A stretch of 64,000 bases of DNA from Verrucomicrobiota bacterium (GCA_016716505.1 JADJWF010000003.1:400674-464673); one strand, 5' to 3'. Shown: positions 6,502 to 52,963, counted from the stretch's first letter. The notes: generated by a model from the sequence alone, not told the origin. Numbers and translations: made by a program.

Positions 6502-6636
6502 CCTCCTTGGCCACCAGGGCGGTGGATCTTGGTTGAGACCGACGCTTTATCCAGCAGGGGGGTTGACCACCGGCGGATCGGCGTTAAGAGTTTTGGCACT
6601 TGGCGACCGACAAACCAGCTAACGCCACTCCGAAGT

Positions 6637-7854
6637 ATGCTTAATCAGACATCCCGACTGACCTCCCTCGTCATCGCCCTCGGCCTGTGGGTTGCCGTCC
6701 CCGACGCCGCGGCGCGCAGCTTCCGCGTCAACCAGTTACCCAATGGCAATGTTTTCGGCTGCGCCAACTGCCACGTCTCCGCCGGGGGCGGAGGAGCCCG
6801 CAATCCCTTTGGCCAGGCGGTTGGAGCCATTACTGGAAGCAGTTCGGCCGCGTTTTGGTCCGCCTCGTTGGCCGCGTTGGATTCCGACGGCGACGGCTTC
6901 TCCAACGGATTTGAGCTTGGCGACCCGGAGGGCGATGGAACCGTCATTCCGGGATGGCGCGTGACGAATCCCGGCTCCGCCGCCAGCCGGCCGCAAAATG
7001 CTGCGCCCACGGTGGCCATTACTGCACCAGCCAACAATGCGACCCTGACCGCCCCCGCCGTGGTGACGATTACGGCGGACGCCGCCGATTCCGACGGCAC
7101 GGTCGCCAGCGTCGAGTTTCTCAACAACGGCCTTCCCTTGGGGAGCGATTCGACCAGTCCCTACTCCTGGCTCGCCGACCTGCCGGTCGGAAGCCACGTG
7201 CTCACTGCCCGGGCCACGGACAACCTTGGAGCGAGCGCAACTTCGGCACCGATTAACGTGACCGTGGTGGCGCCACCCCCCATTAGCTTGAATCCGCCCA
7301 CGTTGGCGGCGGGCAACCTGGTCGTCACGTGGACCGGTGGTGGCGGGCCCTTCCTCGTCGAGACAAAGAGTGACCTCGCGCAAGCTTGGCCCGGTCAGGT
7401 CCAGGGGGTCACCGAGCGGTCCGCACAAGTTCCTGCAGGCGGCGCGGCGGGGTTTGTCCGGGTGGCGGACACGGCGGTGATCGGCCCGCTGGCCCTGACC
7501 TCCACCCTCTCCGGCGCCAACGAGCGCCCCACCCCCGTGGTCTCGCCGGGTACAGGTTCTGGCACGTTCAGTCTGGACGGCAGCACCCTGACTTTGACCA
7601 TCACCTACTCCGGGCTCTCGGGCCCGGCGACCGCCGCCCATATCCACGGACCGGCCGGCCCCGAGGAGAACGCGCCAATGATGATCAACCTCGCTCCCTT
7701 TCACTCCGGGGCATTCGGGACCAGCGGAACGATGGCCGGCAGCGTGATCCTCACTCCCGAACAGAAGGCCGCACTGCTCACCGGTCGCACGTACGTCAAC
7801 ATCCACACGGCGAATTTCCCAGCCGGCGAGATTCGCGGGCAGATTCTCCGGTGA
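6637..7854 (+). CDS. secreted CHRD-domain protein with an N-terminal single CxxCH site and Ig-like domain
   Basis: Start at [26 protein letters not shown] (signal peptide). Contains [19 protein letters not shown] and a [20 protein letters not shown] Ca-binding-like loop. An Ig-like domain follows ([15 protein letters not shown]...[12 protein letters not shown]). The C-terminal CHRD signature is [10 protein letters not shown]...[15 protein letters not shown]...[18 protein letters not shown]. Confidence 0.85.
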
Positions 7855-8031: not shown

Positions 8032-8862
8032 GTGCGCCCCCGGTTTCCATCGCTGATCCCCGGCGGCTGGCGGTCGGCCCGTTTCCCGGCCGCCGTCGCT
8101 GGTTGTGCCGTTTTCCTGCCGCTCCTCGGTCTGCTATTCAGCGCGTGTTCGACCCTCGATGGCACGGTGGCGACGCCGCCTTACATCGAGGGAGCCGAGT
8201 TCGTCGGCAATCGGGCCTGTCTCGACTGCCACACCAATCTCGTCCAGATCTTTCCGTCGAGCCCTCACGGCCGTTTCCACCGCGACCACGACCTGCGTCT
8301 CGCCGGGCAGACTGGTTGTGAGTCCTGTCACGGTGCGGGCAGTCTGCACGTCAAGACCGGCGGTGCCGGACCCAACAAGCACATCTTCAACCCCGGCCGC
8401 GACCCCGGGCCCTGTTTCCAATGCCACCTGGAAACTCACGCGGAATTCCGTCTGCCGCAGCGACATCCGGTGCTCGAAGGAAAGATGACCTGCGTGGAAT
8501 GTCACGACCCGCACGGGCCGGACATTATGAAGCCTGCCGGCGGACTGGCGATGGCGCGACGCAACGAGTCCTGCGGCAACTGCCACCGGGAGCAAACGCG
8601 GCCGTTCGTGTACGAGCATGAGGCGATGCGCGAGGGCTGCGGGAGCTGCCATCACCCGCACGGTTCGGTGAACGCCGCCCTGCTGGTCCAACGTGACGCC
8701 AACCTCTGCCTCAAATGCCATTCGCAAATCGGGTCGGAAACCGGAGGTCTGCTGATCGGCAAGGTGGATCATTCCAGCTTCGTGCGTCTGGGCGGCTGCT
8801 GGTCGGCCGGGTGCCACTCGGCTGTTCACGGCTCGAACGTCAACCCCAAGCTCCTTTACTAA
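8032..8862 (+). CDS. multihaem c-type cytochrome lipoprotein (7 CxxCH + 1 CxxxxCH)
   Basis: 276-aa ORF with a GTG start. Lipobox LLFSAC. Haem motifs are CLDCH, CESCH, CFQCH, CVECH, CGNCH, CGSCH and CLKCH, plus CWSAGCH near the C-terminus. The dense His/Cys spacing resembles small periplasmic MtrA/DmsE/OmaB-type cytochromes. Confidence 0.9.
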   Translation: MRPRFPSLIPGGWRSARFPAAVAGCAVFLPLLGLLFSACSTLDGTVATPPYIEGAEFVGNRACLDCHTNLVQIFPSSPHGRFHRDHDLRLAGQTGCESCHGAGSLHVKTGGAGPNKHIFNPGRDPGPCFQCHLETHAEFRLPQRHPVLEGKMTCVECHDPHGPDIMKPAGGLAMARRNESCGNCHREQTRPFVYEHEAMREGCGSCHHPHGSVNAALLVQRDANLCLKCHSQIGSETGGLLIGKVDHSSFVRLGGCWSAGCHSAVHGSNVNPKLLY

Positions 8863-8871
8863 ACCGCCGCC

Positions 8872-11313
8872 ATGAGCCCGCTCGCGCCCCCGTTGCGACC
8901 GCCGCGCCCCGGCGACCGAAAGCACCGGGCCGCCGCCGGGCGAGCGGTGGTATCGCTCGCGTTATCCGGTTTCGCCGCCACCTGCACGGCCGAGGTGGAC
9001 ATCTCGAAACTTCCTCCCCCGGCCGACGGGCCGGTGGACTTTGCCCGCGACGTCCGGCCCATCCTGGAAAACGCCTGCTTGCGCTGCCACGGACCGGAGC
9101 GCCCCAAAAGCGGCTACCGCCTCGACAACCGCGCCGACGCCCTCAAGGGCGGCGCAATCGGCACGGCGATCATCCCGGGAGACAGCAGCAAAAGCCCGCT
9201 CATCCACTACGTCGCCCGCCTGATCGAAGACCTCGAAATGCCGCCGGTCGGCAAGGGGGAGCCCTTAACCTCTGAACAGGTCGCTCTGCTCCGCGCCTGG
9301 GTGGATCAAGGTGCCCCCTACTCCGCCGATGCCGAGACCGCGCCGCGACTTTCGCTCCTGACCGCGTCCCCGGTCGTGGGTTGGGTGGGCATCACGGGAA
9401 ACGAGCGGAAGTTTCGCGAGCACAACTGGATTACGGACGGCTTCGCCGGCGGGCTGCAAGAGTTCACGTGGCGGGAAACGCTCCCGGACGGCACTCTTTT
9501 CAAAGCCGACGGCCGCGCCCTGGGCGGCAACGAGGACTACCGCCTGCGGCTGTCGCTGGAGCGCCCCGGTCAGGGGTTCGTACGCGCTGGCTTCACCCAA
9601 TTTCGCCGCTGGTATGACGACGCGGGCGGATGGTATGCGCCGTTTACCACGTCGCCCTTCCGCCTCGGCGAGGACCTGTACACCGACACCACGCGCGCGT
9701 GGTTCGACGTCGGCCTCGATCGGCCGGGCTGGCCCCGGCTGCAAGTGGGTTACGAGTACCAACAGCGCGACGGTACCAAGGCCATCACGCAGTGGGGACC
9801 GGTCTCCGATTTCGCCACGGGCGAGACCAAAGCAATCTACCCGGCGGCGAAGTCCTTCGACGAAACCGTCCACCTTATCAAAGCCGACCTGGCGCACACG
9901 CTTCTGGGCGTGCGGGTCGAGGACAGTTTTCAACTCGAGTTCTACGACCGTACCAGCAACCGCCGGGTTGCCGACGCTGCCTCCGCCAGCGACAGCGGAC
10001 CCGACGTGATCACGCGATTCCAGGACGCGGCCGACCACCGCCGACTGGCAAACACCTTCCGCCTCGAGCGGTTGGTGCGGGAAGGCGTTTTGCTCACCGG
10101 CGGCTATCGGTATGCGGACCTCGACGGCGGCGCGGGGTTCAGCATGGAAACCTTCCTGCCGAGCGATCCGGCGCTGGGCCCGTTCGTTGGCGACGTCGCA
10201 ACCGACATCGTTCTCCGGCAGCAATCGCACGTGGCCAACGGCAACGCGCAACTGGGGCCGTGGGCGAACTTCACCCTGACCGCGGGCGCGCAGGCGGAGT
10301 GGCTCCGCCAACAGGGTTTCGGCCGGGCCACCATCAGCGGTTTCGCCAGCCCGTTCGAATCGAGTCTCGATCGGCAAACCGTTCAAGAGCTGGCCACGCT
10401 CCGCTACACCGGCCTGCCGTTCACGGTCGTGTACGCCGAAGCCCGCCTCGAACAACAGGCCATCGGCCAGTTCGAGGACCGGAGGATTGACGACGGCTTC
10501 GACGACGACCGCGATTTCTTGCGCGACACGGACGCCACCGTGGATGGCTTCGACGCGCGAGCCGGCATCACTATCTCGCCGTGGCAGCGCGTGGCCCTTT
10601 CGGCCGGATACCGTTACCGCGAACGGTCGGTGGACTACGACCACCGTGCCGACACCGACGGGTCACTAACCCCCGGCAACGGCTATCCGGCGTTCATCCG
10701 CGCCCACGACTTCACCGGCGAGGAGATGGAAGCCAGACTCGTCTTCCGCGCCAACCGCTGGCTCAAGACGACGCTCAAGTTCCAGGTCGTTGCGTCCGAG
10801 TCTTACACGGACACCCCATCCGTCATCGCTCAAGGCACCGGCGATGTCTTTACGGGGGGCCGCTGGCAATCGGGCAACTACGACGCGCACGTCATCAGCT
10901 TCAGCGCAACCGTGGCCCCGTGGCGGCGGCTGGTGCTCACGCCGCTGGTCTCCTATGCGCCCTCGCGCTTGTCCACCGCCGGCGCCGAAGCCGTCGGTTT
11001 GCCGGAATACGCCGGCGACATCGTCTCGGTGATTTGCGGTGCGTCGTTCGTCCTCGATTCGCGAACCGATCTGACCGCGAGCTACGGCTTCTCGACGGCC
11101 GACTTCGCCCGGGCGGCGAGCACGGACTACCTGCCGCTGGGCATCGAGTATGACCGCCACGCGTTGACCGCCGGGTTGCGCCGGAGGTTCACCGACCGCG
11201 TCAGCGGGACGTTGGACTACGGGTTCTTCGCCTACTCCGAGCCGATTTCCGGCGGCGCGGCGGATTACACCGCCCACGGCGTCTTCGCAGGCGTGTCGGT
11301 TCGGTTCAAGTAA
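8872..11313 (+). CDS. planctomycete-type cytochrome c domain (PSCyt1-like) fused to a large predicted outer-membrane beta-barrel
   Basis: 813-aa ORF starting 10 nt after the cytochrome gene. The N-terminus FARDVRPILENACLRCHGPERPKSGYRLDN...SPLIHYV...MPP matches the PSCyt1 pattern. The remaining ~650 aa have no further Cys and show alternating polar/hydrophobic strand periodicity rich in Y/W/F/R/D/G. The ending LDYGFFAYSE...GVFAGVSVRFK is OMP-like. Confidence 0.75.
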   Translation: MSPLAPPLRPPRPGDRKHRAAAGRAVVSLALSGFAATCTAEVDISKLPPPADGPVDFARDVRPILENACLRCHGPERPKSGYRLDNRADALKGGAIGTAIIPGDSSKSPLIHYVARLIEDLEMPPVGKGEPLTSEQVALLRAWVDQGAPYSADAETAPRLSLLTASPVVGWVGITGNERKFREHNWITDGFAGGLQEFTWRETLPDGTLFKADGRALGGNEDYRLRLSLERPGQGFVRAGFTQFRRWYDDAGGWYAPFTTSPFRLGEDLYTDTTRAWFDVGLDRPGWPRLQVGYEYQQRDGTKAITQWGPVSDFATGETKAIYPAAKSFDETVHLIKADLAHTLLGVRVEDSFQLEFYDRTSNRRVADAASASDSGPDVITRFQDAADHRRLANTFRLERLVREGVLLTGGYRYADLDGGAGFSMETFLPSDPALGPFVGDVATDIVLRQQSHVANGNAQLGPWANFTLTAGAQAEWLRQQGFGRATISGFASPFESSLDRQTVQELATLRYTGLPFTVVYAEARLEQQAIGQFEDRRIDDGFDDDRDFLRDTDATVDGFDARAGITISPWQRVALSAGYRYRERSVDYDHRADTDGSLTPGNGYPAFIRAHDFTGEEMEARLVFRANRWLKTTLKFQVVASESYTDTPSVIAQGTGDVFTGGRWQSGNYDAHVISFSATVAPWRRLVLTPLVSYAPSRLSTAGAEAVGLPEYAGDIVSVICGASFVLDSRTDLTASYGFSTADFARAASTDYLPLGIEYDRHALTAGLRRRFTDRVSGTLDYGFFAYSEPISGGAADYTAHGVFAGVSVRFK

Positions 11314-11396: not shown

Positions 11397-14300
11397 CTAT
11401 CGCATCGGATTCACCCGCCACACCCGAACCGCATCCTGCGCACAGGTCAGCAGCGATTCATCGGCGAGGAACTCAAGGGAGAAGATGGGTTGCGAGTGAG
11501 CGGCATAGGTGAAGACCTCGCGGCCGGTCACCACATCCCACATCACGACCGCGCCATCCAGGGCTCCGGCGACGATGCGCCGATGGTCCGGACTCCATAC
11601 CGCCGAGTTCAGATTCCGAACCCCGCTCGACAACTCAGACAGGAGACGCCCATCGGTGAGACTCCAAATCCGCGCTCGCCCATCCTGGCCAACGGTTAGC
11701 AGGCGCTCCTCGTCCGCCGTAAATTCGACCGCCGGGAACTGGGCGTGCTGGATCGCGAACGGCAATTCCCGTCCGTCCGCCGTGGCGAACAGTTGCACCC
11801 GCCCCGTCGTGTCCACCGAGAAGGCGAAGCGGGTTGATGGGGAAAGCCCCGAGTAGTAGGGCTGGTTGGCGACCGCGAACCGCAGCCGCCATGGATCCGT
11901 CTCCCAGAGGCGAAGCCCGTTCACCAAATCCGCCGCCAAGACCACTGACCCGTCCGGGCTCGGCGTGACGCCGGCGACGGTCGGTCCACGCAGGCGTCGG
12001 TGCAGGTCCTCGGTGACGCGCCGTTCCCGCCCGGTCAACAGTTCCCGCACCGCGAGGCCGTTCTCATATTCCAGTGCCGCCGCCCACACGCTGCCCCGAC
12101 CGTCGGCGTTGGCCCCAATGCTCAAGCGGTTCGTAGCCCCGGACCACTCGGCCACGAGCGTGCCTTCCGGGATGCGCCACAACCGCACGTCGAACTCCGG
12201 GCTCGCCGTCAAGACGTGGCGGCCATCCCTGACGCTGAACGCGTAACTCGTAGTCCCGCTCACTACCGGAATGGCCGGCAGCACCTCGCGGGGTTCGCGG
12301 TGCCACACCTGGATCAGACCGTCCAGCGCCCCGCTAATCACGGTCTGGTGATCAGGCAGGAAGGCCGCCATGACCAGCAACGCGCCCCCGGTGCGCAGCC
12401 GAACCGGCGGGCCATCACTCGCGAGGTCGGTGATCTGCACGAACGGATCACGGCCCACGGTCACCACGCGACGTCCATCGGCGGACAACGCCGCGCACAT
12501 CACGAGGTCCGCGTGGCCTTCGATCACCCGTTCGCACCGGCCGGTCGTCACATTCCACACCCGCGCGGTGCCATCCCCTCCCGCGCTCACCAAACGCGCG
12601 CCGTCGGCGGAAAACTCGAGCCACTGCACCGCTGCGCCCCACGCGGGATTGAAGTCATGCCCTTCCAGACGCGCCACCTCCCGGCCGGTGAGGGTCTCGA
12701 GCACCATGATGGTTCCGCGGTCGTCGGCGGTTGCCAGCCATCGCGCATCGGGCGACAGCACCGTGTCGCGCGTACGCCCGGCCACGGCCACCCGATGCCG
12801 GAGCCGTTCACGGCCGGACGCCAACTCGTACTCGGCATACGCGTCCCGACCGAGCATCCAGACCGATCGCCCATCCGGACTCACCGCGCCCGCGACGCGG
12901 TTGCCGGGCGTGGGAAATTCGCGCTCCAACTCCAACCGCGGCAGCCGGAAGACCTGCGCGAAGTGGTTGGTTTCATCGTCGCCACGCCGGCCCACGACCA
13001 GCCGCGTGGCATCCGGGGATACGGCAAACAGCGGCAAACTCCCCTGCCCGGTGTCGAGCGACGCGACCGGCTGGCGGGCCACCAAATCCCAAACTTTGAT
13101 ATTGCCGCCCACATCCGAGGAAACCAGCCACTTGCCGTCCGCCACCACGCGAAAAAAGCCGACCGCGCTTCGATGACCCGCCAGGTGATATTGCTCGTCA
13201 CTGCGGCTGGCCTCCCAGAGGAATCGCCACTCCCAGCCACGCAGATCCGGTCCGTTCTTCGGCGCGGCATAACGAGAGAGGATCGCGCGCACCTGCGACT
13301 GATTGCCGGCAGCGAACGCCTGCGACGCCAGTTGCATATCGGCCGCGTAGAGATTGCTGCGGGTGGTCAGGTCGCTGGCTTCGGCCAGGGCCCGTGCTTG
13401 TTCGATGCGAAATGCAGCCACGGTCGAAATGACCGCGACCGCCGCCAGCAACAGGGCGGTCGCGGCCCCCAGCGCCGCGATGGCCGGGTGGCGACGCCGC
13501 CACTTCAGCACCCGCTCGATGGGGCCCGCCGGCCGGGCGCGAATGGGTTCGTCGGCGAGAAACCGGCCGAGATCTTCGGCAACTTCCTTGACCGTCTGGT
13601 AGCGCCGCGCGGGCTGTTTCTCGAGGCACTTGAGGCAGATGGTTTCCAGTTCCTCCGGCACGCCGGGCCGCAGAAGCCGCGGACGGACGGGATCCATCGT
13701 CTTGACGGCTTCAATCGTGTCCTCCGGCGTTTCCCCGCGAAACGGGGGCCGGTCCGTCAGCAAATAGTAGAGGATGGCTCCGACGCCAAAGACATCGGTG
13801 CGCACATCCGGCTCACCAAACCGGGCCGAAGCCTGCTCGGGCGCCATGTAGTTCGGCGTGCCCGCGCCGAGCGTGGGATCCTGACGGGACGCCTGATCCA
13901 CCCGCCGCGCGAGACCGAAGTCCGTGATCTGCGGTTCCCCGTACTCGTCAATCACCACATTCGCCGGCTTGAGATCGTGGTGCATCACGCCCCGACCGTG
14001 CGCGTAGGCGACCGCCTCGGCGATCTTTCGGGCCAGTTGAGCCACCGCCTGGGCGGGCAAAACCCGGGACCGGGAGTACCGGCCGAGATCCTGCCCGGCG
14101 ACATACTCCATCGAGAAGAACACCCTTCCTTCGGCGCGCCCCACCTCAAAGACGGCGACGATATTTGGGTGATCCAGGCTGCCGGCGACCTGGGCCTCCT
14201 CGATCAGACTGGCATCCAGGTCGTCTCCCGGCCGATTGGCGGTGTGGAGCATCTTGAGCGCGCACAACCGGTTCATGCAGCACTGACGCGCCTTGTAGAT

Positions 14301-14411
14301 CACCCCCATCCCGCCGCGCCCAATTTCCTCCAGCAACTCATAGTCACCGAACTGCCGCGGCAGCGACAGCGGTTCAGTCGGCGGCGGTGGGTGGGACGGA
14401 GTCGCTGACAT
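11397..14411 (-). CDS. Ser/Thr protein kinase - TM helix - WD40 beta-propeller sensor (1004 aa)
   Basis: Hanks kinase motifs GRGGMGVIYKA, HHDLKPANV, DFGLAR and GTPNYMAPE. TM segment AIAALGAATALLLAAVAVISTV. More than 12 WD40-like blades follow (GH...D......WD repeats). Confidence 0.9.
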   Translation of the reverse strand: MSATPSHPPPPTEPLSLPRQFGDYELLEEIGRGGMGVIYKARQCCMNRLCALKMLHTANRPGDDLDASLIEEAQVAGSLDHPNIVAVFEVGRAEGRVFFSMEYVAGQDLGRYSRSRVLPAQAVAQLARKIAEAVAYAHGRGVMHHDLKPANVVIDEYGEPQITDFGLARRVDQASRQDPTLGAGTPNYMAPEQASARFGEPDVRTDVFGVGAILYYLLTDRPPFRGETPEDTIEAVKTMDPVRPRLLRPGVPEELETICLKCLEKQPARRYQTVKEVAEDLGRFLADEPIRARPAGPIERVLKWRRRHPAIAALGAATALLLAAVAVISTVAAFRIEQARALAEASDLTTRSNLYAADMQLASQAFAAGNQSQVRAILSRYAAPKNGPDLRGWEWRFLWEASRSDEQYHLAGHRSAVGFFRVVADGKWLVSSDVGGNIKVWDLVARQPVASLDTGQGSLPLFAVSPDATRLVVGRRGDDETNHFAQVFRLPRLELEREFPTPGNRVAGAVSPDGRSVWMLGRDAYAEYELASGRERLRHRVAVAGRTRDTVLSPDARWLATADDRGTIMVLETLTGREVARLEGHDFNPAWGAAVQWLEFSADGARLVSAGGDGTARVWNVTTGRCERVIEGHADLVMCAALSADGRRVVTVGRDPFVQITDLASDGPPVRLRTGGALLVMAAFLPDHQTVISGALDGLIQVWHREPREVLPAIPVVSGTTSYAFSVRDGRHVLTASPEFDVRLWRIPEGTLVAEWSGATNRLSIGANADGRGSVWAAALEYENGLAVRELLTGRERRVTEDLHRRLRGPTVAGVTPSPDGSVVLAADLVNGLRLWETDPWRLRFAVANQPYYSGLSPSTRFAFSVDTTGRVQLFATADGRELPFAIQHAQFPAVEFTADEERLLTVGQDGRARIWSLTDGRLLSELSSGVRNLNSAVWSPDHRRIVAGALDGAVVMWDVVTGREVFTYAAHSQPIFSLEFLADESLLTCAQDAVRVWRVNPMR

Positions 14412-47526: not shown

Positions 47527-50508
47527 CTATTTTTCCGCCGTGCCGATGTACTCGAGGAGGTCCGCGACGCCTTGAGGGTCAAGCCCCGCCTCCAGTTCGT
47601 CCGGCATGAGCGACTTCCCTGTACTCCGCATGGCGGCGATGCTCGTCCGCGGGATGACCGTTTCCTTGCCGTAGGCCTGACGCAGGGTCACTGCGGTGGC
47701 CGTCTCGTTGACGAGAACGCCGAGCACGCTCTCGTCGTCCTTGGTCTCCACCTCGTAGGCCACGTACTGCGGCAGCAACTCGCGACTGGGGTCAATCAGG
47801 TTCGAGAGCAGCTTGTCCTTGCCCGCGTTGCGCACGCTGACGAGATCCGGGCCGACAAGCCACCCTTCGCCCCCCAGTCGGTGGCAGGAGGCGCAGCGCT
47901 CCTGAAACACCTGCCGGCCTCGGGCCGCATCACCGGCGAGCGTCAAGGCGGGTTCATAAGCCGCGAGCACCTCCTCCCGGCTGCCGGCCCCTGCCGCCGT
48001 CAGCAGCCGGACGGCGCGGCCGCGAATCGCCTCATCGCGGTGGTTGGTGAGCTGATCTATCTGCACGGAGGTCAGGTCCGTCCGGCGAATCACACCCGAC
48101 TCCACCGCGCCCAACAACGCAGGCAGCCGCTCCGGCCGGCCCAGCAACACCGCCACCGCCGCCTCCCGTAGGCGTGGGGTGAAGGCGGGCCAACGGGCGA
48201 CGAGGGCGGTCGCAAGCTCGGGGCCCGAGAGACGCCCCAGCGTCTCCAGCGCCGCGAGTTGGATTGGCTGCGGGGTTTCCGGGGTGAGCAGGGACAGCAG
48301 CAGAACGCCGGCTTCCTCGAAACGCGTGAGCGCCAGCAGTTCCACGGCGCGAACCCGGTCACGCTCGGGTTGCTGGCTGTCCCGGGCCAGAACGCGGGCG
48401 CGCTCCAGGATCGGTTGAATCCGTTCGGCCGCGAGCGACGCCCGGGCGCGGCGCAACCCCTCGGCAAGCCCATGCACCAGTGCAAACGCCGCGGCAGGGT
48501 CGGGCGTGCGGGCAACGTGATCCAGCACGGCGGCGACCTCGTTGCTCTGGTTGCGCGCGCCAATGACGCGGACCAGATCCCGCAGGAATTCCGGCGCGGC
48601 CACCGGTTGACCGCCCGAACGCCGCGCGAGCCGCTGGAACAATTCTCCCGCTCCGTCAGCGAGAGAACTCAGTATCGCTGCCCGCATCCACGGATCGCCA
48701 CCGTCCCGCACGGCCAAATCCTCCAGACCCTGAATGCGTTCGGGCCCCCGGCATTCTCCCAGCGTGAACGCCACTTGATACCGTACCAACGGCGACGAAT
48801 CACCCGTCATTGCGAGCAGCCGGGCGGGCAGTGGGTGGGTTGCCCCGGCGCTCGCGAGAAAAGGTTCCGACAGTTTCACCGCGTGTTCGCGGACCCGGTC
48901 GTCGGTGTCGTCGAGGGCGCGCTGAAGGTGTTCCTGCCGCAGCGCGCCCAGTCCCGCCAGCGCGTAAAGGGCATGCAAGCGGCCGAGAGGCGACGCAGCG
49001 TCCCCCAAGAGTCGCTCGAGCGCCGGAATCGCTGCCCGATCCGGTCGCTCGTAAATCAGTCGCGCCGCTGTCTCCCGATGCCACGCGTTACGGTGCCCCA
49101 GCGCGGCCACGAGTTCCGCCGTGCCCGCCTCGCCGAGCCGCGGCCGAGCCGGCGGTTTGAATCCGGTAGGCACCACGCGGTAGATGCGGCCACGATCGTT
49201 GCCGGCATTGAGATCCAGGTGCTTCTTCAATGCCGGCGGCAGCGACCACGGGTGCTCGATGATCTCGCGATACATGTCCACGATGTAGAGCGCGCCGTCG
49301 GGTCCGTTCACCAACTGCACCGGACGAAACCATGTGTCGCGGGAGGTCAGGAATTCGACCCGCTGCTCCTCCGCCGGTCTTTCGGCCCGCAGAACCACGC
49401 CGTCCTGTCGCAGCTTCTTGCGATGAATCAGATTGCTCCCGCAGTCGGCGGTGAACGCATCACCCACAAACTCCTCGGGCCACGCATCCCCGCGATAAAT
49501 GGTGACGCCGGTGGCGCTCGTGAAGTAACCGCTCGCCCGGCCGCCGCCTTCGATGAGCCCGGGCACGGCGCCGCTCACGCGCCAGCGCGTGCGAATGACC
49601 CGCCACGGTTCCTCCGGACTGGTGCGAAAGACCTCCGCTGCCGGGCCGTCCACGGCGATGCTCTGCAGCACCGGCGGCATGTCGAAGTAGGGATTCCGCG
49701 CCGCGTAGCGGGCATCGTATTGGAACACCCGAAGGTGGTCGCTGTTGTTGCAGGTGAAGCGGCGGCCGCGATCGTCAAACGCCAGCCCGTACTGTCCACC
49801 CCCGGCCTCGGCAACCATTTCCCACGTGCGCGGGTCGAAGGCGAAGTCGCGTCCGCGCACATTCACCGATCGCCCGGCGGGCCAGCGCGGGGAAGTAATC
49901 TCGCCACCGTTTGGCGCCGTGCAGCCGTGGATGCGGTTGTCCAATCCCCAGCGGAAGCTGTTCACCATGGCCTGCATGTTGAGCTGGTTGGTGGCGTAGG
50001 GCGCGTAATCAATGGCGAAGCCCGTGAAGGCGAGCTCCCGGCTTTCGGCCTTGCCGTCGCCGTCGGTGTCCCGACAGAAGAAAACGTCCGGGGTCGCGGC
50101 CACGAACAATCCGCCGTTGGCCCAGAAGACGCCGGTCGGCCACGGCAGGTCGTCCACAAAGACCCGGCTGCGGTCCATGCGGCCATCGCCGTCCGTGTCC
50201 TCCAACAGTCGGATCCGCCCGAGGTGCGGCTTGGCATCGCGCAGCTCCGAATAGTCAATCATCTCGACCGCGAACAATCTTCCGTTCTCATCGAAGCAGA
50301 TTTCGATCGGATCGCGGACCAGCGGCTCGGCGGCGACCAACTCGACCCGGAAGCCGGGCTTTACGACGAAGGTGGCCAGCGCTTCAGCCGGCTCGACCGG
50401 AGGGAAGCGCGGCAATTCCCGCAAGTCCACCTCGGGCTCGGCGGCCGCGAGCGCCCGGCCCACCAGCAGCAGGGCAAAGGCAATTCGCACGATGGCAGGA
50501 CGGTTCAT
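47527..50508 (-). CDS. PVC-type membrane-bound-dehydrogenase-domain / HEAT-repeat / haem-binding CxxCH protein
   Basis: Start at MNRPAIVRIAFALLLVGRALAAA (alternative Met at 50523). N-terminal FRVELVAAEPLVRDPIEICFDENGRLFAVEM... propeller-like domain, central HEAT-like repeats, and a C-terminal cytochrome c domain (RGRQVFQERCASCHRLGGEG...SLMPDELE). This architecture is common in Planctomycetes and Verrucomicrobia. Confidence 0.88.
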   Translation of the reverse strand: MNRPAIVRIAFALLLVGRALAAAEPEVDLRELPRFPPVEPAEALATFVVKPGFRVELVAAEPLVRDPIEICFDENGRLFAVEMIDYSELRDAKPHLGRIRLLEDTDGDGRMDRSRVFVDDLPWPTGVFWANGGLFVAATPDVFFCRDTDGDGKAESRELAFTGFAIDYAPYATNQLNMQAMVNSFRWGLDNRIHGCTAPNGGEITSPRWPAGRSVNVRGRDFAFDPRTWEMVAEAGGGQYGLAFDDRGRRFTCNNSDHLRVFQYDARYAARNPYFDMPPVLQSIAVDGPAAEVFRTSPEEPWRVIRTRWRVSGAVPGLIEGGGRASGYFTSATGVTIYRGDAWPEEFVGDAFTADCGSNLIHRKKLRQDGVVLRAERPAEEQRVEFLTSRDTWFRPVQLVNGPDGALYIVDMYREIIEHPWSLPPALKKHLDLNAGNDRGRIYRVVPTGFKPPARPRLGEAGTAELVAALGHRNAWHRETAARLIYERPDRAAIPALERLLGDAASPLGRLHALYALAGLGALRQEHLQRALDDTDDRVREHAVKLSEPFLASAGATHPLPARLLAMTGDSSPLVRYQVAFTLGECRGPERIQGLEDLAVRDGGDPWMRAAILSSLADGAGELFQRLARRSGGQPVAAPEFLRDLVRVIGARNQSNEVAAVLDHVARTPDPAAAFALVHGLAEGLRRARASLAAERIQPILERARVLARDSQQPERDRVRAVELLALTRFEEAGVLLLSLLTPETPQPIQLAALETLGRLSGPELATALVARWPAFTPRLREAAVAVLLGRPERLPALLGAVESGVIRRTDLTSVQIDQLTNHRDEAIRGRAVRLLTAAGAGSREEVLAAYEPALTLAGDAARGRQVFQERCASCHRLGGEGWLVGPDLVSVRNAGKDKLLSNLIDPSRELLPQYVAYEVETKDDESVLGVLVNETATAVTLRQAYGKETVIPRTSIAAMRSTGKSLMPDELEAGLDPQGVADLLEYIGTAEK

Positions 50509-50623
50509 TTGAGCGGCCACCATTGAAACAAGGCGAGCTTCCGTGGGAAACGCGAAACGGACGGCCGTGGGCAGGAAGTCGGCCGGGCTTGCGTCCGTCT
50601 TTGGGAGCAGCGAGGGTGCCCCC

Positions 50624-52963
50624 ATGCCGTCTGGTTCCACCCTCCCGCTCACCACTGGGTTGATGGCCGCGCTGGGTTGCTTGTCGGTTGCTGTGCCGAA
50701 AGCCGCCTCCACCATCGAAACCGTCGCGTGGAAAGTTCCCGCCAAGGCTCCGGATGCGGCGGAGCTCGCCTTGCCGGGAGACGTGACCCTTCAAGGCTTC
50801 CTGGGGCGACGCGTCGCGGTCAACGCCTCTGAACGGCTGGCGAAGGTGGACCTCGAGCCGCTGCTGGCCGGGTTCCGTCAGAAGCCGGGATCGCATCCGT
50901 GGATTGGTGAGCACATTGGCAAATGGCTGCACGCCGCGACGCTCGCGTGGGCGCAAACGGCCGACGACGCCCTGAAAGCGCGGCTCGATGATGCCGTCGC
51001 CGAACTGATCAAAGCGCAGGAGCCCGATGGGTATCTCGGCACTTACCCGCCCAACCAGCGCTTTGGACTGTACGAGGGGGCGGATTGGGATGTGTGGTCG
51101 CACAAGTATTGCCTGATGGGTCTGCTGACCTACCACCAATACACGGGCGACGCAGCGGCGCTCGAAGCCAGCCGCAAGGCGGCCGACCTGCTGCTCGCGA
51201 CCTTCCCTGCCAGGAAAAGCATTCTCGCCGCCGGCACGCACGTGGGCATGGCGGCAACCAGCGTGCTCGAACCGATGGTTCTGCTGTACCGCCTCACGGC
51301 CGAACCGCGGTATCATGAATTTTGCGAGTACCTGGTGAAGTCGTGGGACGAGCCAAACGGACCGCGCATCCTGGCGACCCTGCTGACCGAAAAGCAGGTC
51401 AATCGGACGGCCAACGGCAAGGCTTACGAAATGCTCTCCAACTTGGTGGGCCTCTGTGAACTGTATCGCGTCAGTGGCGAGCCGCGGTATCTCCGGGCGG
51501 CGTTGAATGCCTGGGAGGACGTAGTGAGTAAACGCCTCTACATCACCGGCAGCGCCAGCCAGGGCGAGCATTTCCGCGACGACCACTACCTGCCCAATGG
51601 TGAAAGCGCCCACGTGGCGGAGACCTGTGTGACCACCACATGGGTCCAGTTCAACGAACAACTCCTCCGCCTCACCGCCGAGGCGCGCTTCGGCCACGAG
51701 CTCGAACGAACGTTTTACAACCACCTCACCGCGGCCCAGCGTCCCGATGGCGCGCAATGGTGCTACTTCACCCCGCTGGAGGGACGCAAACCGTACGGCC
51801 CGGGCATCAACTGCTGCGTCTCCAGCGGCCCGCGCGGCGTGGCCCTCGTGCCGCCCGCGGCGGCCTTTACCTATCGGGCGCCGGGCGCGCCCGGTATCGC
51901 AATCAATCTCTTCGAACTCGCCGAGTTCAGGACGACCGTGGACGGCGAGCCGGTCGGGCTGCGGGTCCGCACGGAATTCCCGAAAGAGGGGCGAATGACG
52001 GTGACCGTGAACGCGCGCCGTCCGGTGTCCTTCGCACTGCGAATCCGTCAACCCGCGTGGGCGGGGACGCTGAAAGCGACTGCACCCGAACCGCTCGGTG
52101 CCGTCGAACGTGACGGCTGGCTCGAGATTGGTCCGCGCGCCTGGGCACCCGGCACTTCGCTCCAGGTCACCTTCACCTGCGATTCCCGCCTCATCCCGGG
52201 CGACCACACAAACGCCAGTAAGGCCGCCTTGGCGTGGGGACCGTTCGTCCTGGCCTACGACACCTCCGAGAATCCAGGCCTGCCCGTCCCCTCGCTCGTG
52301 GCGCTTGGGGACGCCGCCGACCAAGCCCCGGCAACCTTGGCCAGTGCCGCGCCATTGCGCCTGACCGCGCGCGTGCGAATCCCCCGTTCCCCGGCGCCGA
52401 AGGTGGCGACGCTCGTCCCCTTTGCCGATGCCGGGGCCCGCGGCGGCCGCTATGCCGTGTGGCTCCGGGCGCCGGACGCGGCGCTTCCGGTCAGCGACTC
52501 CCTTTTCCTGTTCGCCGACGAAGCCCGGAGCCAGACCGGCAATGTCAGCGGCTCGATCACGGACGGCGATCCCGCTTCGTTTGTGGTCACCTTCAACGGC
52601 CGGCCCCAGACGCAGGCGTGGTTTGAAGTTCGGGCCCCGCACCCAGTAACGCTCGGCCGGGTGGTGTTCACCCACGGACAGAACTTCCACGATGGCGGCT
52701 GGTTTGACACCTCCGGCGGGAAACCGCGTGTCGAGGTCCGCCGGACCAACGACGGGCCTTGGGAGACGGTTGGGGAAATCGCCGATTACCCCGCGACCTC
52801 CTCGAGGGACCACGGGGGCCTTAAAGCGGGTCAACCGTTCTCGTTGCGCCTGACCACGCCGGTTGAAGCCCTGGCGGTGCGCGTGATCGGCAAACCGGCC
52901 GGCGGCGACAACCCGGCCCAAGCGTTCGCCTCGTGTGGCGAACTCGAAGCGTTCCCGAAATAG
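50624..52963 (+). CDS. glycoside hydrolase family 127 (DUF1680, beta-L-arabinofuranosidase-like) with C-terminal discoidin-like domain
   Basis: Start taken at the ATG at 50624, which leaves a 115-nt divergent spacer. HPWIGEHIGKWLHAATLAW...EPDGYLGTY...WDVWSHKYCLMGLL. The catalytic/zinc Cys context is AETCVTTTW and GINCCVSSGPRG (the E-x-C and CC motifs of GH127, from memory). Confidence 0.86.
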   Translation: MPSGSTLPLTTGLMAALGCLSVAVPKAASTIETVAWKVPAKAPDAAELALPGDVTLQGFLGRRVAVNASERLAKVDLEPLLAGFRQKPGSHPWIGEHIGKWLHAATLAWAQTADDALKARLDDAVAELIKAQEPDGYLGTYPPNQRFGLYEGADWDVWSHKYCLMGLLTYHQYTGDAAALEASRKAADLLLATFPARKSILAAGTHVGMAATSVLEPMVLLYRLTAEPRYHEFCEYLVKSWDEPNGPRILATLLTEKQVNRTANGKAYEMLSNLVGLCELYRVSGEPRYLRAALNAWEDVVSKRLYITGSASQGEHFRDDHYLPNGESAHVAETCVTTTWVQFNEQLLRLTAEARFGHELERTFYNHLTAAQRPDGAQWCYFTPLEGRKPYGPGINCCVSSGPRGVALVPPAAAFTYRAPGAPGIAINLFELAEFRTTVDGEPVGLRVRTEFPKEGRMTVTVNARRPVSFALRIRQPAWAGTLKATAPEPLGAVERDGWLEIGPRAWAPGTSLQVTFTCDSRLIPGDHTNASKAALAWGPFVLAYDTSENPGLPVPSLVALGDAADQAPATLASAAPLRLTARVRIPRSPAPKVATLVPFADAGARGGRYAVWLRAPDAALPVSDSLFLFADEARSQTGNVSGSITDGDPASFVVTFNGRPQTQAWFEVRAPHPVTLGRVVFTHGQNFHDGGWFDTSGGKPRVEVRRTNDGPWETVGEIADYPATSSRDHGGLKAGQPFSLRLTTPVEALAVRVIGKPAGGDNPAQAFASCGELEAFPK

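Follow-up and report, generated by a model that had tools for sequence, protein, structure and literature searches.

Can a bacterium from a phylum regarded mainly as polysaccharide degraders carry electrons across its outer membrane? Verrucomicrobiota are among the most abundant bacteria of soils and lakes, and the Mtr, Mto/Pio, and Pcc conduits, as well as the fused cytochrome-porin Cyc2, are already established. The question is raised by a 64,000-nucleotide (nt) stretch of DNA from a Verrucomicrobiota bacterium (GCA_016716505.1 JADJWF010000003.1:400674-464673), referred to here as the window, with all nucleotide positions counted from its first letter. On the plus strand, at 8032-11313, a gene for a multihaem lipoprotein cytochrome is followed by a gene for a protein of 813 amino acids (aa) in which a monohaem domain precedes a putative outer-membrane beta-barrel. 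The original prediction, made from the sequence, proposed that the two form a porin-cytochrome conduit, and this proposal is supported by the homology of the cytochrome to MtrA, a 26-strand MtrB-like model of the barrel, and the strict pairing of the two genes. The pair is thus likely to be a two-protein, trans-outer-membrane electron conduit on the MtrA/MtrB principle, with the cytochrome as its “wire” and the barrel protein as its “sheath.” The G+C content of the window is 64-69%. At NCBI, the 813-aa protein is a hypothetical protein of a Verrucomicrobia metagenome-assembled genome (MAG) and carries no further annotation.

An octahaem cytochrome and a haem-bearing barrel

What kind of cytochrome does the first gene encode? 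It runs from a GTG start at 8032 to 8862 and specifies 276 aa. As predicted, the product has a lipobox (LFSAC, 8134-8148), in which Cys39 (8146-8148) would be lipidated, and eight haem-attachment motifs (8218-8817). These can be described more finely as seven CxxCH motifs, at aa 63, 96, 128, 154, 181, 203, and 226, and one CxxxxCH (CWSAGCH, aa 256-262, 8797-8817), a pattern kept in 52 of 54 homologues from other genomes. The lipobox cysteine is found in all of the approximately 57 orthologues, about 24 residues ahead of haem 1, and is nearly invariant in a 40-sequence alignment. Throughout that alignment all of the motif cysteines and histidines are invariant, along with exactly eight distal histidines (79, 106, 145, 161, 196, 210, 247, and 266). 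Eight motif histidines and eight further invariant ones fit a cytochrome with eight bis-His haems.

Used as a query, the cytochrome retrieved 4,902 proteins at E ≤ 0.001, and the best-scoring of these look like orthologues. Its best match among PDB sequences is 6r2q_A (E 7e-25), an oddly labelled entry that is MtrA of the crystallized Shewanella baltica Mtr complex. Residues 125-270, which hold six haem motifs, are collinear with MtrA 180-325 (haems 5-10), and residues 59-111 align with MtrA haems 1-2. MtrA haems 3-4 are without equivalents, so that the protein, by sequence a clear MtrA homologue with collinear haem motifs, would correspond to MtrA minus haems 3-4. Family models tell a similar story. 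TIGR03508, the DmsE/MtrA decahaem model singled out for checking in the original prediction, gave a divided answer: the cytochrome matches the family (145.6 bits, E 1.7e-42, with the best stretch in the C-terminal half) but lies under the curated cut-off of 192.2. Such a shortfall is to be expected of a protein with eight haems, not ten; the TIGR03508 family calls for ten CxxCH motifs, and the cytochrome family conserves eight sites. NF041028, the GSU2203 decahaem family, scored 159.3 bits, also below its cut-off, and Pfam Paired_CXXCH_1 matched at E 1.9e-20.

The second gene (8872-11313) encodes a signal peptide, a PSCyt1 cytochrome c domain (aa ~45-150, 9004-9321), a short linker (aa 151-161, 9322-9354), and a barrel region (aa 162-813, 9355-11310). 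The planctomycete-type cytochrome c signature claimed for the first ~150 aa is a Pfam PSCyt1 match (PF07635; aa 69-125, 56.8 bits, E 3.5e-15). It includes the single CLRCH of the protein (aa 69-73, 9076-9090). C69, C72, H73, M123, P124, and P125 are invariant in 63 homologues, and Met123, in the Met-Pro-Pro motif at 9238-9246, is the likely axial ligand. The invariant CxxCH and Met-Pro-Pro suggest a class-I-like, His/Met-ligated haem. Weak matches link the domain to FoxE and to the haem domain of hydrazine synthase alpha. The fusion is no oddity of one genome, as there are more than 500 full-length homologues, with PSCyt1 present in 55 of the 55 full-length members scanned. The remaining ~650 aa had been described as Cys-free, which is nearly correct; the cysteines of the protein are at 38, 69, 72, and 722, the last of which lies in the barrel.

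Does this remainder really form a barrel? The beta-strand periodicity noted earlier is matched by a confident AlphaFold2 model built from 63 homologues, with a mean predicted local distance difference test (pLDDT) of 89 and a predicted template modelling score (pTM) of 0.76. It consists of a helical domain (~45-150, pLDDT ~80-93), the linker (151-161), where low confidence (pLDDT down to 57) suggests flexibility and which joins the haem domain to barrel strand 1, and 26 beta-strands (162-812). Its first strands are short, with a helix (aa 178-185) separating strand 1 from strand 2. When the model was compared to the PDB using Foldseek, the top match was MtrB (6r2q_B, E 7e-15), with a target-normalized template modelling (TM) score of 0.65; 22-strand TonB-dependent transporters came next, at only ~0.43. 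The C terminus, ...GVSVRFK, resembles that of outer-membrane proteins, as had been pointed out, and homologues end alike, with an aromatic residue at the penultimate position. Pfam MtrB_PioB (PF11854) is borderline, scoring 22.5 bits on the full protein and 23.6 on the barrel alone with a cut-off of 23, and it is matched at E ≤ 0.01 by 3 of 56 members of the fusion family. Sequence similarity to MtrB is therefore marginal, and the kinship rests mainly on structure and gene context, which support the modelled barrel as an MtrB-like 26-strand sheath.

The gene context is strikingly constant. In the window, the cytochrome stop codon (TAA, 8860-8862) and the barrel-gene ATG (8872) are separated by a spacer of 9 nt (8863-8871), rather than the 10 first reported, and the barrel gene lies directly downstream, as stated, in the same reading frame. 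The two may be translationally coupled. In homologous pairs elsewhere, the gap is likewise at most a few tens of nucleotides. When genomes were scanned, one per species, 61 loci gave a barrel match, either full or truncated by the contig, and almost all of these belong to Verrucomicrobiota MAGs; a metagenome scan seeded with a 13-sequence subset of barrels lacking the haem domain found 38 such “unfused” loci and 41 “fused” ones. (The neighbourhood of the 813-aa protein's own gene was read from the window alone.) Wherever upstream DNA was available, a same-strand cytochrome gene lay directly upstream of the barrel: in 58 of 58 genome loci, where the cytochromes are 53-69% identical to that of the window, and in 31 of 31 unfused and 29 of 29 fused metagenome loci. 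This is 118 of 118 overall, the synteny that the conduit proposal called for, and it rules out chance adjacency.

Some of the public records carrying the pair have implausible organism labels: Bifidobacterium or Bifidobacteriaceae (L005, L014, L016, L023, L027, L040, and L048), Haliangiales (L011), Limnocylindrales (L020), and Acidoferrum (L060). These are probably binning or naming errors.

Could the 813-aa protein simply be a soluble protein of the usual PSCyt1-headed kind, either PSCyt1-PSCyt2/PSD (DUF1549/DUF1553) or a propeller, that sits beside a cytochrome by coincidence? PSCyt1 does normally head such proteins, just as the original prediction noted; all of the PSCyt1-only matches in other genomes (L061-L083) are PSCyt1-PSCyt2-PSD proteins, and they have no cytochrome neighbour. 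The 813-aa protein, however, has no PSCyt2 or PSD match, its residues 162-812 are modelled confidently as a 26-strand barrel with no propeller or DUF1549/1553 fold, its top structural match is MtrB, and its gene is adjacent to a cytochrome gene at every locus that could be scored. A soluble protein is scarcely credible here, and this reading was rejected.

Other results do weigh against the pair being an MtrAB-like conduit. TIGR03509, the MtrB/PioB model that had also been proposed as a check, gave no meaningful match to the barrel (15.3 bits versus a cut-off of 240). MtrB was also missing from the PDB sequences retrieved with a profile of the fusion family, all of which were haem-domain matches, namely, hydrazine synthase alpha, a monohaem cytochrome, and, weakly, FoxE. 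Finally, AlphaFold2 modelled the cytochrome alone, from the 40-sequence alignment, with a pLDDT of only 48; multihaem proteins modelled without their haems give poor models.

Two clades and their gene neighbourhoods

How general is the fusion of haem domain and barrel? A search with the barrel alone against 1.84 billion cluster representatives found 799 relatives (E ≤ 0.001). Among full-length relatives, 58 have an N-terminal haem domain and 37 have a signal peptide only. A neighbour-joining tree of the barrel regions splits cleanly into fused and unfused clades, with three exceptions, and the protein encoded in the window belongs to the PSCyt1-fused clade. The exceptions are “unfused” barrels inside the fused clade (P0247 at L084, P0296 at L085, and P0267). 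The gene calls at L084 and L085 start at or near a contig edge and P0267 has a short N terminus, so these are probably truncated gene calls rather than true losses of the haem domain. The cytochromes of the unfused clade have the lipobox cysteine as well.

The two clades keep different company. Counting loci with at least 5 kb of flanking DNA, another open reading frame (ORF) with at least four haems was found at 19 of 25 unfused loci, compared to 0 of 20 fused metagenome loci and 3 of 49 fused genome loci (p 6e-12). A further multihaem gene is thus missing at 66 of 69 fused loci, and at unfused loci the extra multihaem neighbours are MtrC-like genes, with MtrC/MtrF domains. Fused loci have neighbours of their own, none of which was seen at the 28 unfused loci scored: cupredoxins (13 of 26 loci, p 9e-6), CusF-SCO1 fusions (10 of 26, p 2e-4), and extracytoplasmic function (ECF) sigma factors (7 of 26, p 0.004). 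Pfam confirms all three neighbour types, and ECF sigma/anti-sigma pairs were also seen. None of the cupredoxin, CusF-SCO1, or ECF genes occurs in the window.

One might suspect from these neighbours that the pair handles metals: under ECF control, it would oxidize or reduce copper or iron in the envelope so that the metal can be taken up or detoxified, and the copper proteins would be its clients, not electron carriers. ECF control is typical of envelope metal-uptake systems, and the CusF-SCO1, cupredoxin, and ECF sigma/anti-sigma genes are enriched precisely beside fused-clade pairs. The window lacks them, however, SCO1 and CusF are most simply seen as chaperones that load the neighbouring cupredoxin, and an eight-haem, membrane-spanning wire would be elaborate for assimilatory reduction. 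We consider a metal-handling role improbable, and even then the pair would, mechanistically, still be a trans-outer-membrane electron conduit.

Three unfused loci illustrate the range of that clade. At L087, a 4-haem BACON protein and a 9-haem MtrC/MtrF-domain protein accompany a 266-aa octahaem lipoprotein, 54% identical to the cytochrome of the window, and a 665-aa barrel. At L091 (7276-11975), the octahaem cytochrome and barrel are joined by a 112-aa class-I monohaem cytochrome and a NapC/NirT (CymA-type) cytochrome, an order that mirrors the Sideroxydans mto cluster. L090 (5718-16892) is a long redox cluster, with an octahaem cytochrome that has an extra N-terminal monohaem/TSP3 unit, the barrel, directly downstream of it a 105-aa monohaem protein, and then a Rieske protein, a cytochrome b, three more multihaem proteins (one of them fused to a Ni_hydr_CYTB domain), and ResB. 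The redox cluster at L090 may represent a complete inner-to-outer-membrane pathway.

What does the fused pair have next to it most often? At 32 of 57 genome loci it is a secreted Big_7-domain protein, the commonest neighbour, which begins with a cupredoxin, with a monohaem unit of the Temptin_C type, or with a domain of unknown kind; most versions have a C-terminal beta-sandwich. The gene upstream of the pair in the window (6637-7854, plus strand) encodes the monohaem version with CHRD added. It probably starts at the ATG at 6637, within an ORF of 6529-7854, and its product has a signal peptide, a monohaem Temptin_C-like domain (41.9 bits), a calcium-binding TSP3 repeat, the immunoglobulin-like Big_7 domain (65.1 bits), the beta-sandwich, and CHRD (97.9 bits). 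The CxxCH site noticed earlier in this gene is a single CANCH (6760-6774), which falls inside the Pfam Temptin_C match. This haem domain is 30% identical (pairwise BLAST, E 7e-7) to the 105-aa monohaem protein of L090, which itself scores below the Pfam Temptin_C threshold. A gap of 177 nt, in which no canonical terminator or promoter was found, separates the upstream gene from the cytochrome gene; scans for promoters and terminators around the genes likewise yielded no usable prediction.

The secreted neighbours of the fused clade share one more feature, a near-identical C-terminal motif, [FY]YRVGRLPNP, that follows the beta-sandwich whether the N-terminal domain is a cupredoxin or unknown. 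Examples are L042:5076-6074, L039:5230-6126, L058:5198-6190, and L034:3921-5207, among many others, and the window has a related domain at ~7240-7480. The motif looks like a sorting or anchoring signal of Verrucomicrobia.

Kinship with known conduits

The pair is a distant relative of the MtrAB core of Shewanella MtrCAB (6r2q), one of the closest systems on record. Genes and models point to a homologous wire encoded directly upstream of its barrel and to a sheath of the same strand number with short first strands and a helix between strands 1 and 2. The differences are also considerable. The wire has eight haems instead of ten, with CxxxxCH as the last site, and is a predicted lipoprotein, which MtrA is not known to be. 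The barrel, with its borderline sequence similarity, bears the PSCyt1 domain at its N terminus. The fused clade has no MtrC-type surface cytochrome, and the phylum is a different one, Verrucomicrobiota. In MtrB, a 26-strand barrel whose first four strands are short, the helix of the strand 1-2 loop caps a small channel (PMC7198977).

The absence of an extracellular multihaem cytochrome brings the fused pair nearer, in gene content, to MtoAB and PioAB, which are two-component MtrAB-type modules that conduct Fe(II) oxidation and are associated with a periplasmic monohaem cytochrome c. In the mto system of Sideroxydans lithotrophicus ES-1, MtoD and PmcA are the monohaem partners, and free PmcA interacts with MtoA (PMC13390432). 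Among the unfused loci, L091 resembles the MtoAB cluster in having a cytochrome, a barrel, a monohaem cytochrome, and a NapC/CymA-type cytochrome. The monohaem unit of the fused pair, by contrast, is no free class-I cytochrome but a PSCyt1-family domain covalently attached to the barrel. Eight haems and a probable lipid anchor distinguish the wire, and the neighbours are cupredoxin or monohaem-Big_7 proteins.

Is a barrel with a haem domain of its own known among characterized systems? The original prediction knew of none, but Cyc2 of Fe(II) oxidizers is such a fused cytochrome-porin (Keffer et al. 2021, bioRxiv 10.1101/228056 / PMC8406198; PMC6344600), with a much smaller barrel and no MtrA-like partner. 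Both proteins place a single N-terminal CxxCH unit before an outer-membrane barrel. In Acidithiobacillus, Cyc2 passes electrons to the cupredoxin rusticyanin, which may be compared to the cupredoxin neighbours of the fused clade. Unlike the pair, however, Cyc2 acts alone with one haem, and its barrel has ~16-17 strands (PMC10654088) as opposed to 26 plus an obligate octahaem neighbour. No sequence relationship was detected between Cyc2 and the fusion protein, and membership in the Cyc2 family was rejected on the strand number and the octahaem partner. Membership in the Pcc type was rejected as well. The Geobacter system (OmaB/OmbB/OmcB; PMC4282303, PMC4245776) has the 12-haem outer-membrane lipoprotein OmcB in addition, and a porin without a haem domain; neither the window nor 66 of the 69 fused loci have a further multihaem gene, and the models on which the cytochrome scores are the MtrA/DmsE and GSU2203-type decahaem ones rather than that of an OmaB equivalog.

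Has the family been seen before? He et al. (2017) described “novel” verrucomicrobial porin-multihaem clusters, in which an eight-haem cytochrome occurs with a porin of 20 or more strands and, in some cases, with an extracellular multihaem protein, and stated that the porins are not homologous to those of Mtr or Pcc (PMC5615132). Matched by description, these clusters fit the unfused clade with extracellular multihaem genes, such as L087. A 2026 paper mentions in a single sentence that Limisphaera has a porin whose N-terminal part bears a haem motif; the porins are said there to have no relation to MtrB (PMC13608581). Again by description, this porin fits the fused clade. Neither paper identified the PSCyt1 domain, the lipobox, the MtrA homology, or the two-clade split. 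MtrB has an N-terminal CXXC and is not known to have a CXXCH haem site. Section 3.3.5 of the later paper, on the other hand, credits MtrB of metal-reducing proteobacteria with one haem-binding motif at the N terminus (PMC13608581); if MtrB indeed lacks a CXXCH, the Limisphaera porin is more unusual than its authors imply. Our literature search found no paper identifying the PSCyt1 fusion, the MtrA homology, the MtrB-like 26-strand fold, the lipoprotein wire, or the two clades with contrasting neighbourhoods, and NCBIfam and Pfam have no dedicated model for the fusion family. The haem-fused variant of MtrAB, although frequent among uncultured Verrucomicrobia of soil and freshwater, has hardly been described.

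The proposed route of electrons and the remaining window

How might the two proteins work together? In the proposed arrangement, the 26-strand barrel is an insulating sheath through which the cytochrome would be threaded as MtrA is in MtrB, its C-terminal haem toward the cell surface and its N-terminal end at the periplasmic mouth. Lipidated Cys39 would tie that end to the inner leaflet of the outer membrane. A barrel with an even number of strands has both of its termini on the periplasmic side, so that the PSCyt1 haem should be found at the periplasmic mouth as well, its domain held by a linker of ~10 residues at the rim, beside the lipid-tethered end of the wire. There it could act as a ninth, built-in relay haem between wire haem 1 and soluble one-electron carriers of the periplasm. 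A likely partner in the window is the secreted monohaem/Big_7/CHRD protein encoded upstream; cupredoxins hold the same position in other genomes. We infer that the wire is inserted, where the PSCyt1 haem lies and what it does, which protein is the partner, and in which direction electrons flow.

In which direction would the electrons move? The most coherent arrangement is a chain of rising potential, since no MtrC-like surface cytochrome is present, the PSCyt1 haem is probably His/Met-ligated, and the clade has copper proteins of its own. Electrons would be taken up from Fe(II) or reduced humics outside and pass along the wire to the relay haem, from there to a cupredoxin or monohaem carrier, and on to an oxidase, as in MtoAB/PioAB and in the chain from Cyc2 to rusticyanin. 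We give inward flow about an even chance. The stronger claim, that the fused clade is a dedicated uptake system in which a nine-haem conduit draws electrons from Fe(II), reduced humics, or minerals outside the cell and supplies them to cupredoxin or monohaem carriers and, through these, to aerobic oxidases, is offered tentatively, as something short of probable.

Several observations weigh against the inward direction. MtrCAB is reversible. Cupredoxins neighbour only about half of the fused loci, and the window has a haem protein instead. Cultured isolates of Limisphaera, a genus of the same order (Limisphaerales), use ferric citrate and ferrihydrite in respiration, and it is in their genomes that the porin with the N-terminal haem motif is encoded beside multihaem cytochromes (PMC13608581). 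The related clusters of He et al. came only from Trout Bog, a humic and largely anoxic water, and transfer to humics was proposed for them (PMC5615132). Might the same structure then work as an outward, respiratory conduit, from the quinol pool through periplasmic carriers and the PSCyt1 haem to the wire and on to soluble or chelated Fe(III), humic quinones, or similar acceptors at the surface? The typically low potential of MtrA-type bis-His haems would suit this direction, and MtrAB alone can reduce soluble acceptors (PMC7198977).

On the other side, the Limisphaera porin has been likened to the fused clade by description only, and there are several other multihaem loci in the Limisphaera genomes. 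Unlike its unfused sister clade, the fused clade is without an MtrC-like surface cytochrome, and its specific neighbours are cupredoxin and CusF-SCO1; a His/Met haem and blue copper are usually of too high a potential to feed a low-potential wire. Nor is there a CymA/NapC-type quinol dehydrogenase near the pair in the window, the remainder of which encodes no other multihaem cytochrome, oxidase, or quinol dehydrogenase. Outward flow therefore seems to us rather unlikely for the fused clade.

What would such a conduit mean for these bacteria? Being so widespread, it would imply that Verrucomicrobiota exchange electrons with iron, humics, and minerals far more than has been assumed. If the uptake reading is true, many Verrucomicrobiota of soil, freshwater, and wastewater would be unrecognized lithoheterotrophic oxidizers of iron or humics, and the split into fused and unfused clades would be an independent replay, in another phylum, of the division of labour between MtoAB and MtrCAB. 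One clade associated with MtrC-like proteins and another associated with copper proteins also offer a natural experiment on how the direction of a conduit or its choice of partners is encoded. The two-gene module is compact and might find use in bioelectrochemical engineering, and the cultured relatives Limisphaera and Pedosphaera offer testable targets.

As to the other genes of the window, a 1004-aa Ser/Thr protein kinase with WD40 beta-propeller matches at roughly residues 410-1000 is encoded on the minus strand at 11397-14411. Its gene is convergent with the barrel gene, 83 nt from the end of the latter, and has no link to the conduit at other loci. The only other large ORF with a CxxCH, at 47527-50745 on the minus strand, is unrelated to the pair. 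It encodes a 1072-aa DUF7133-HEAT-cytochrome c protein, of a kind typical of Planctomycetes-Verrucomicrobia-Chlamydiae (PVC) genomes.

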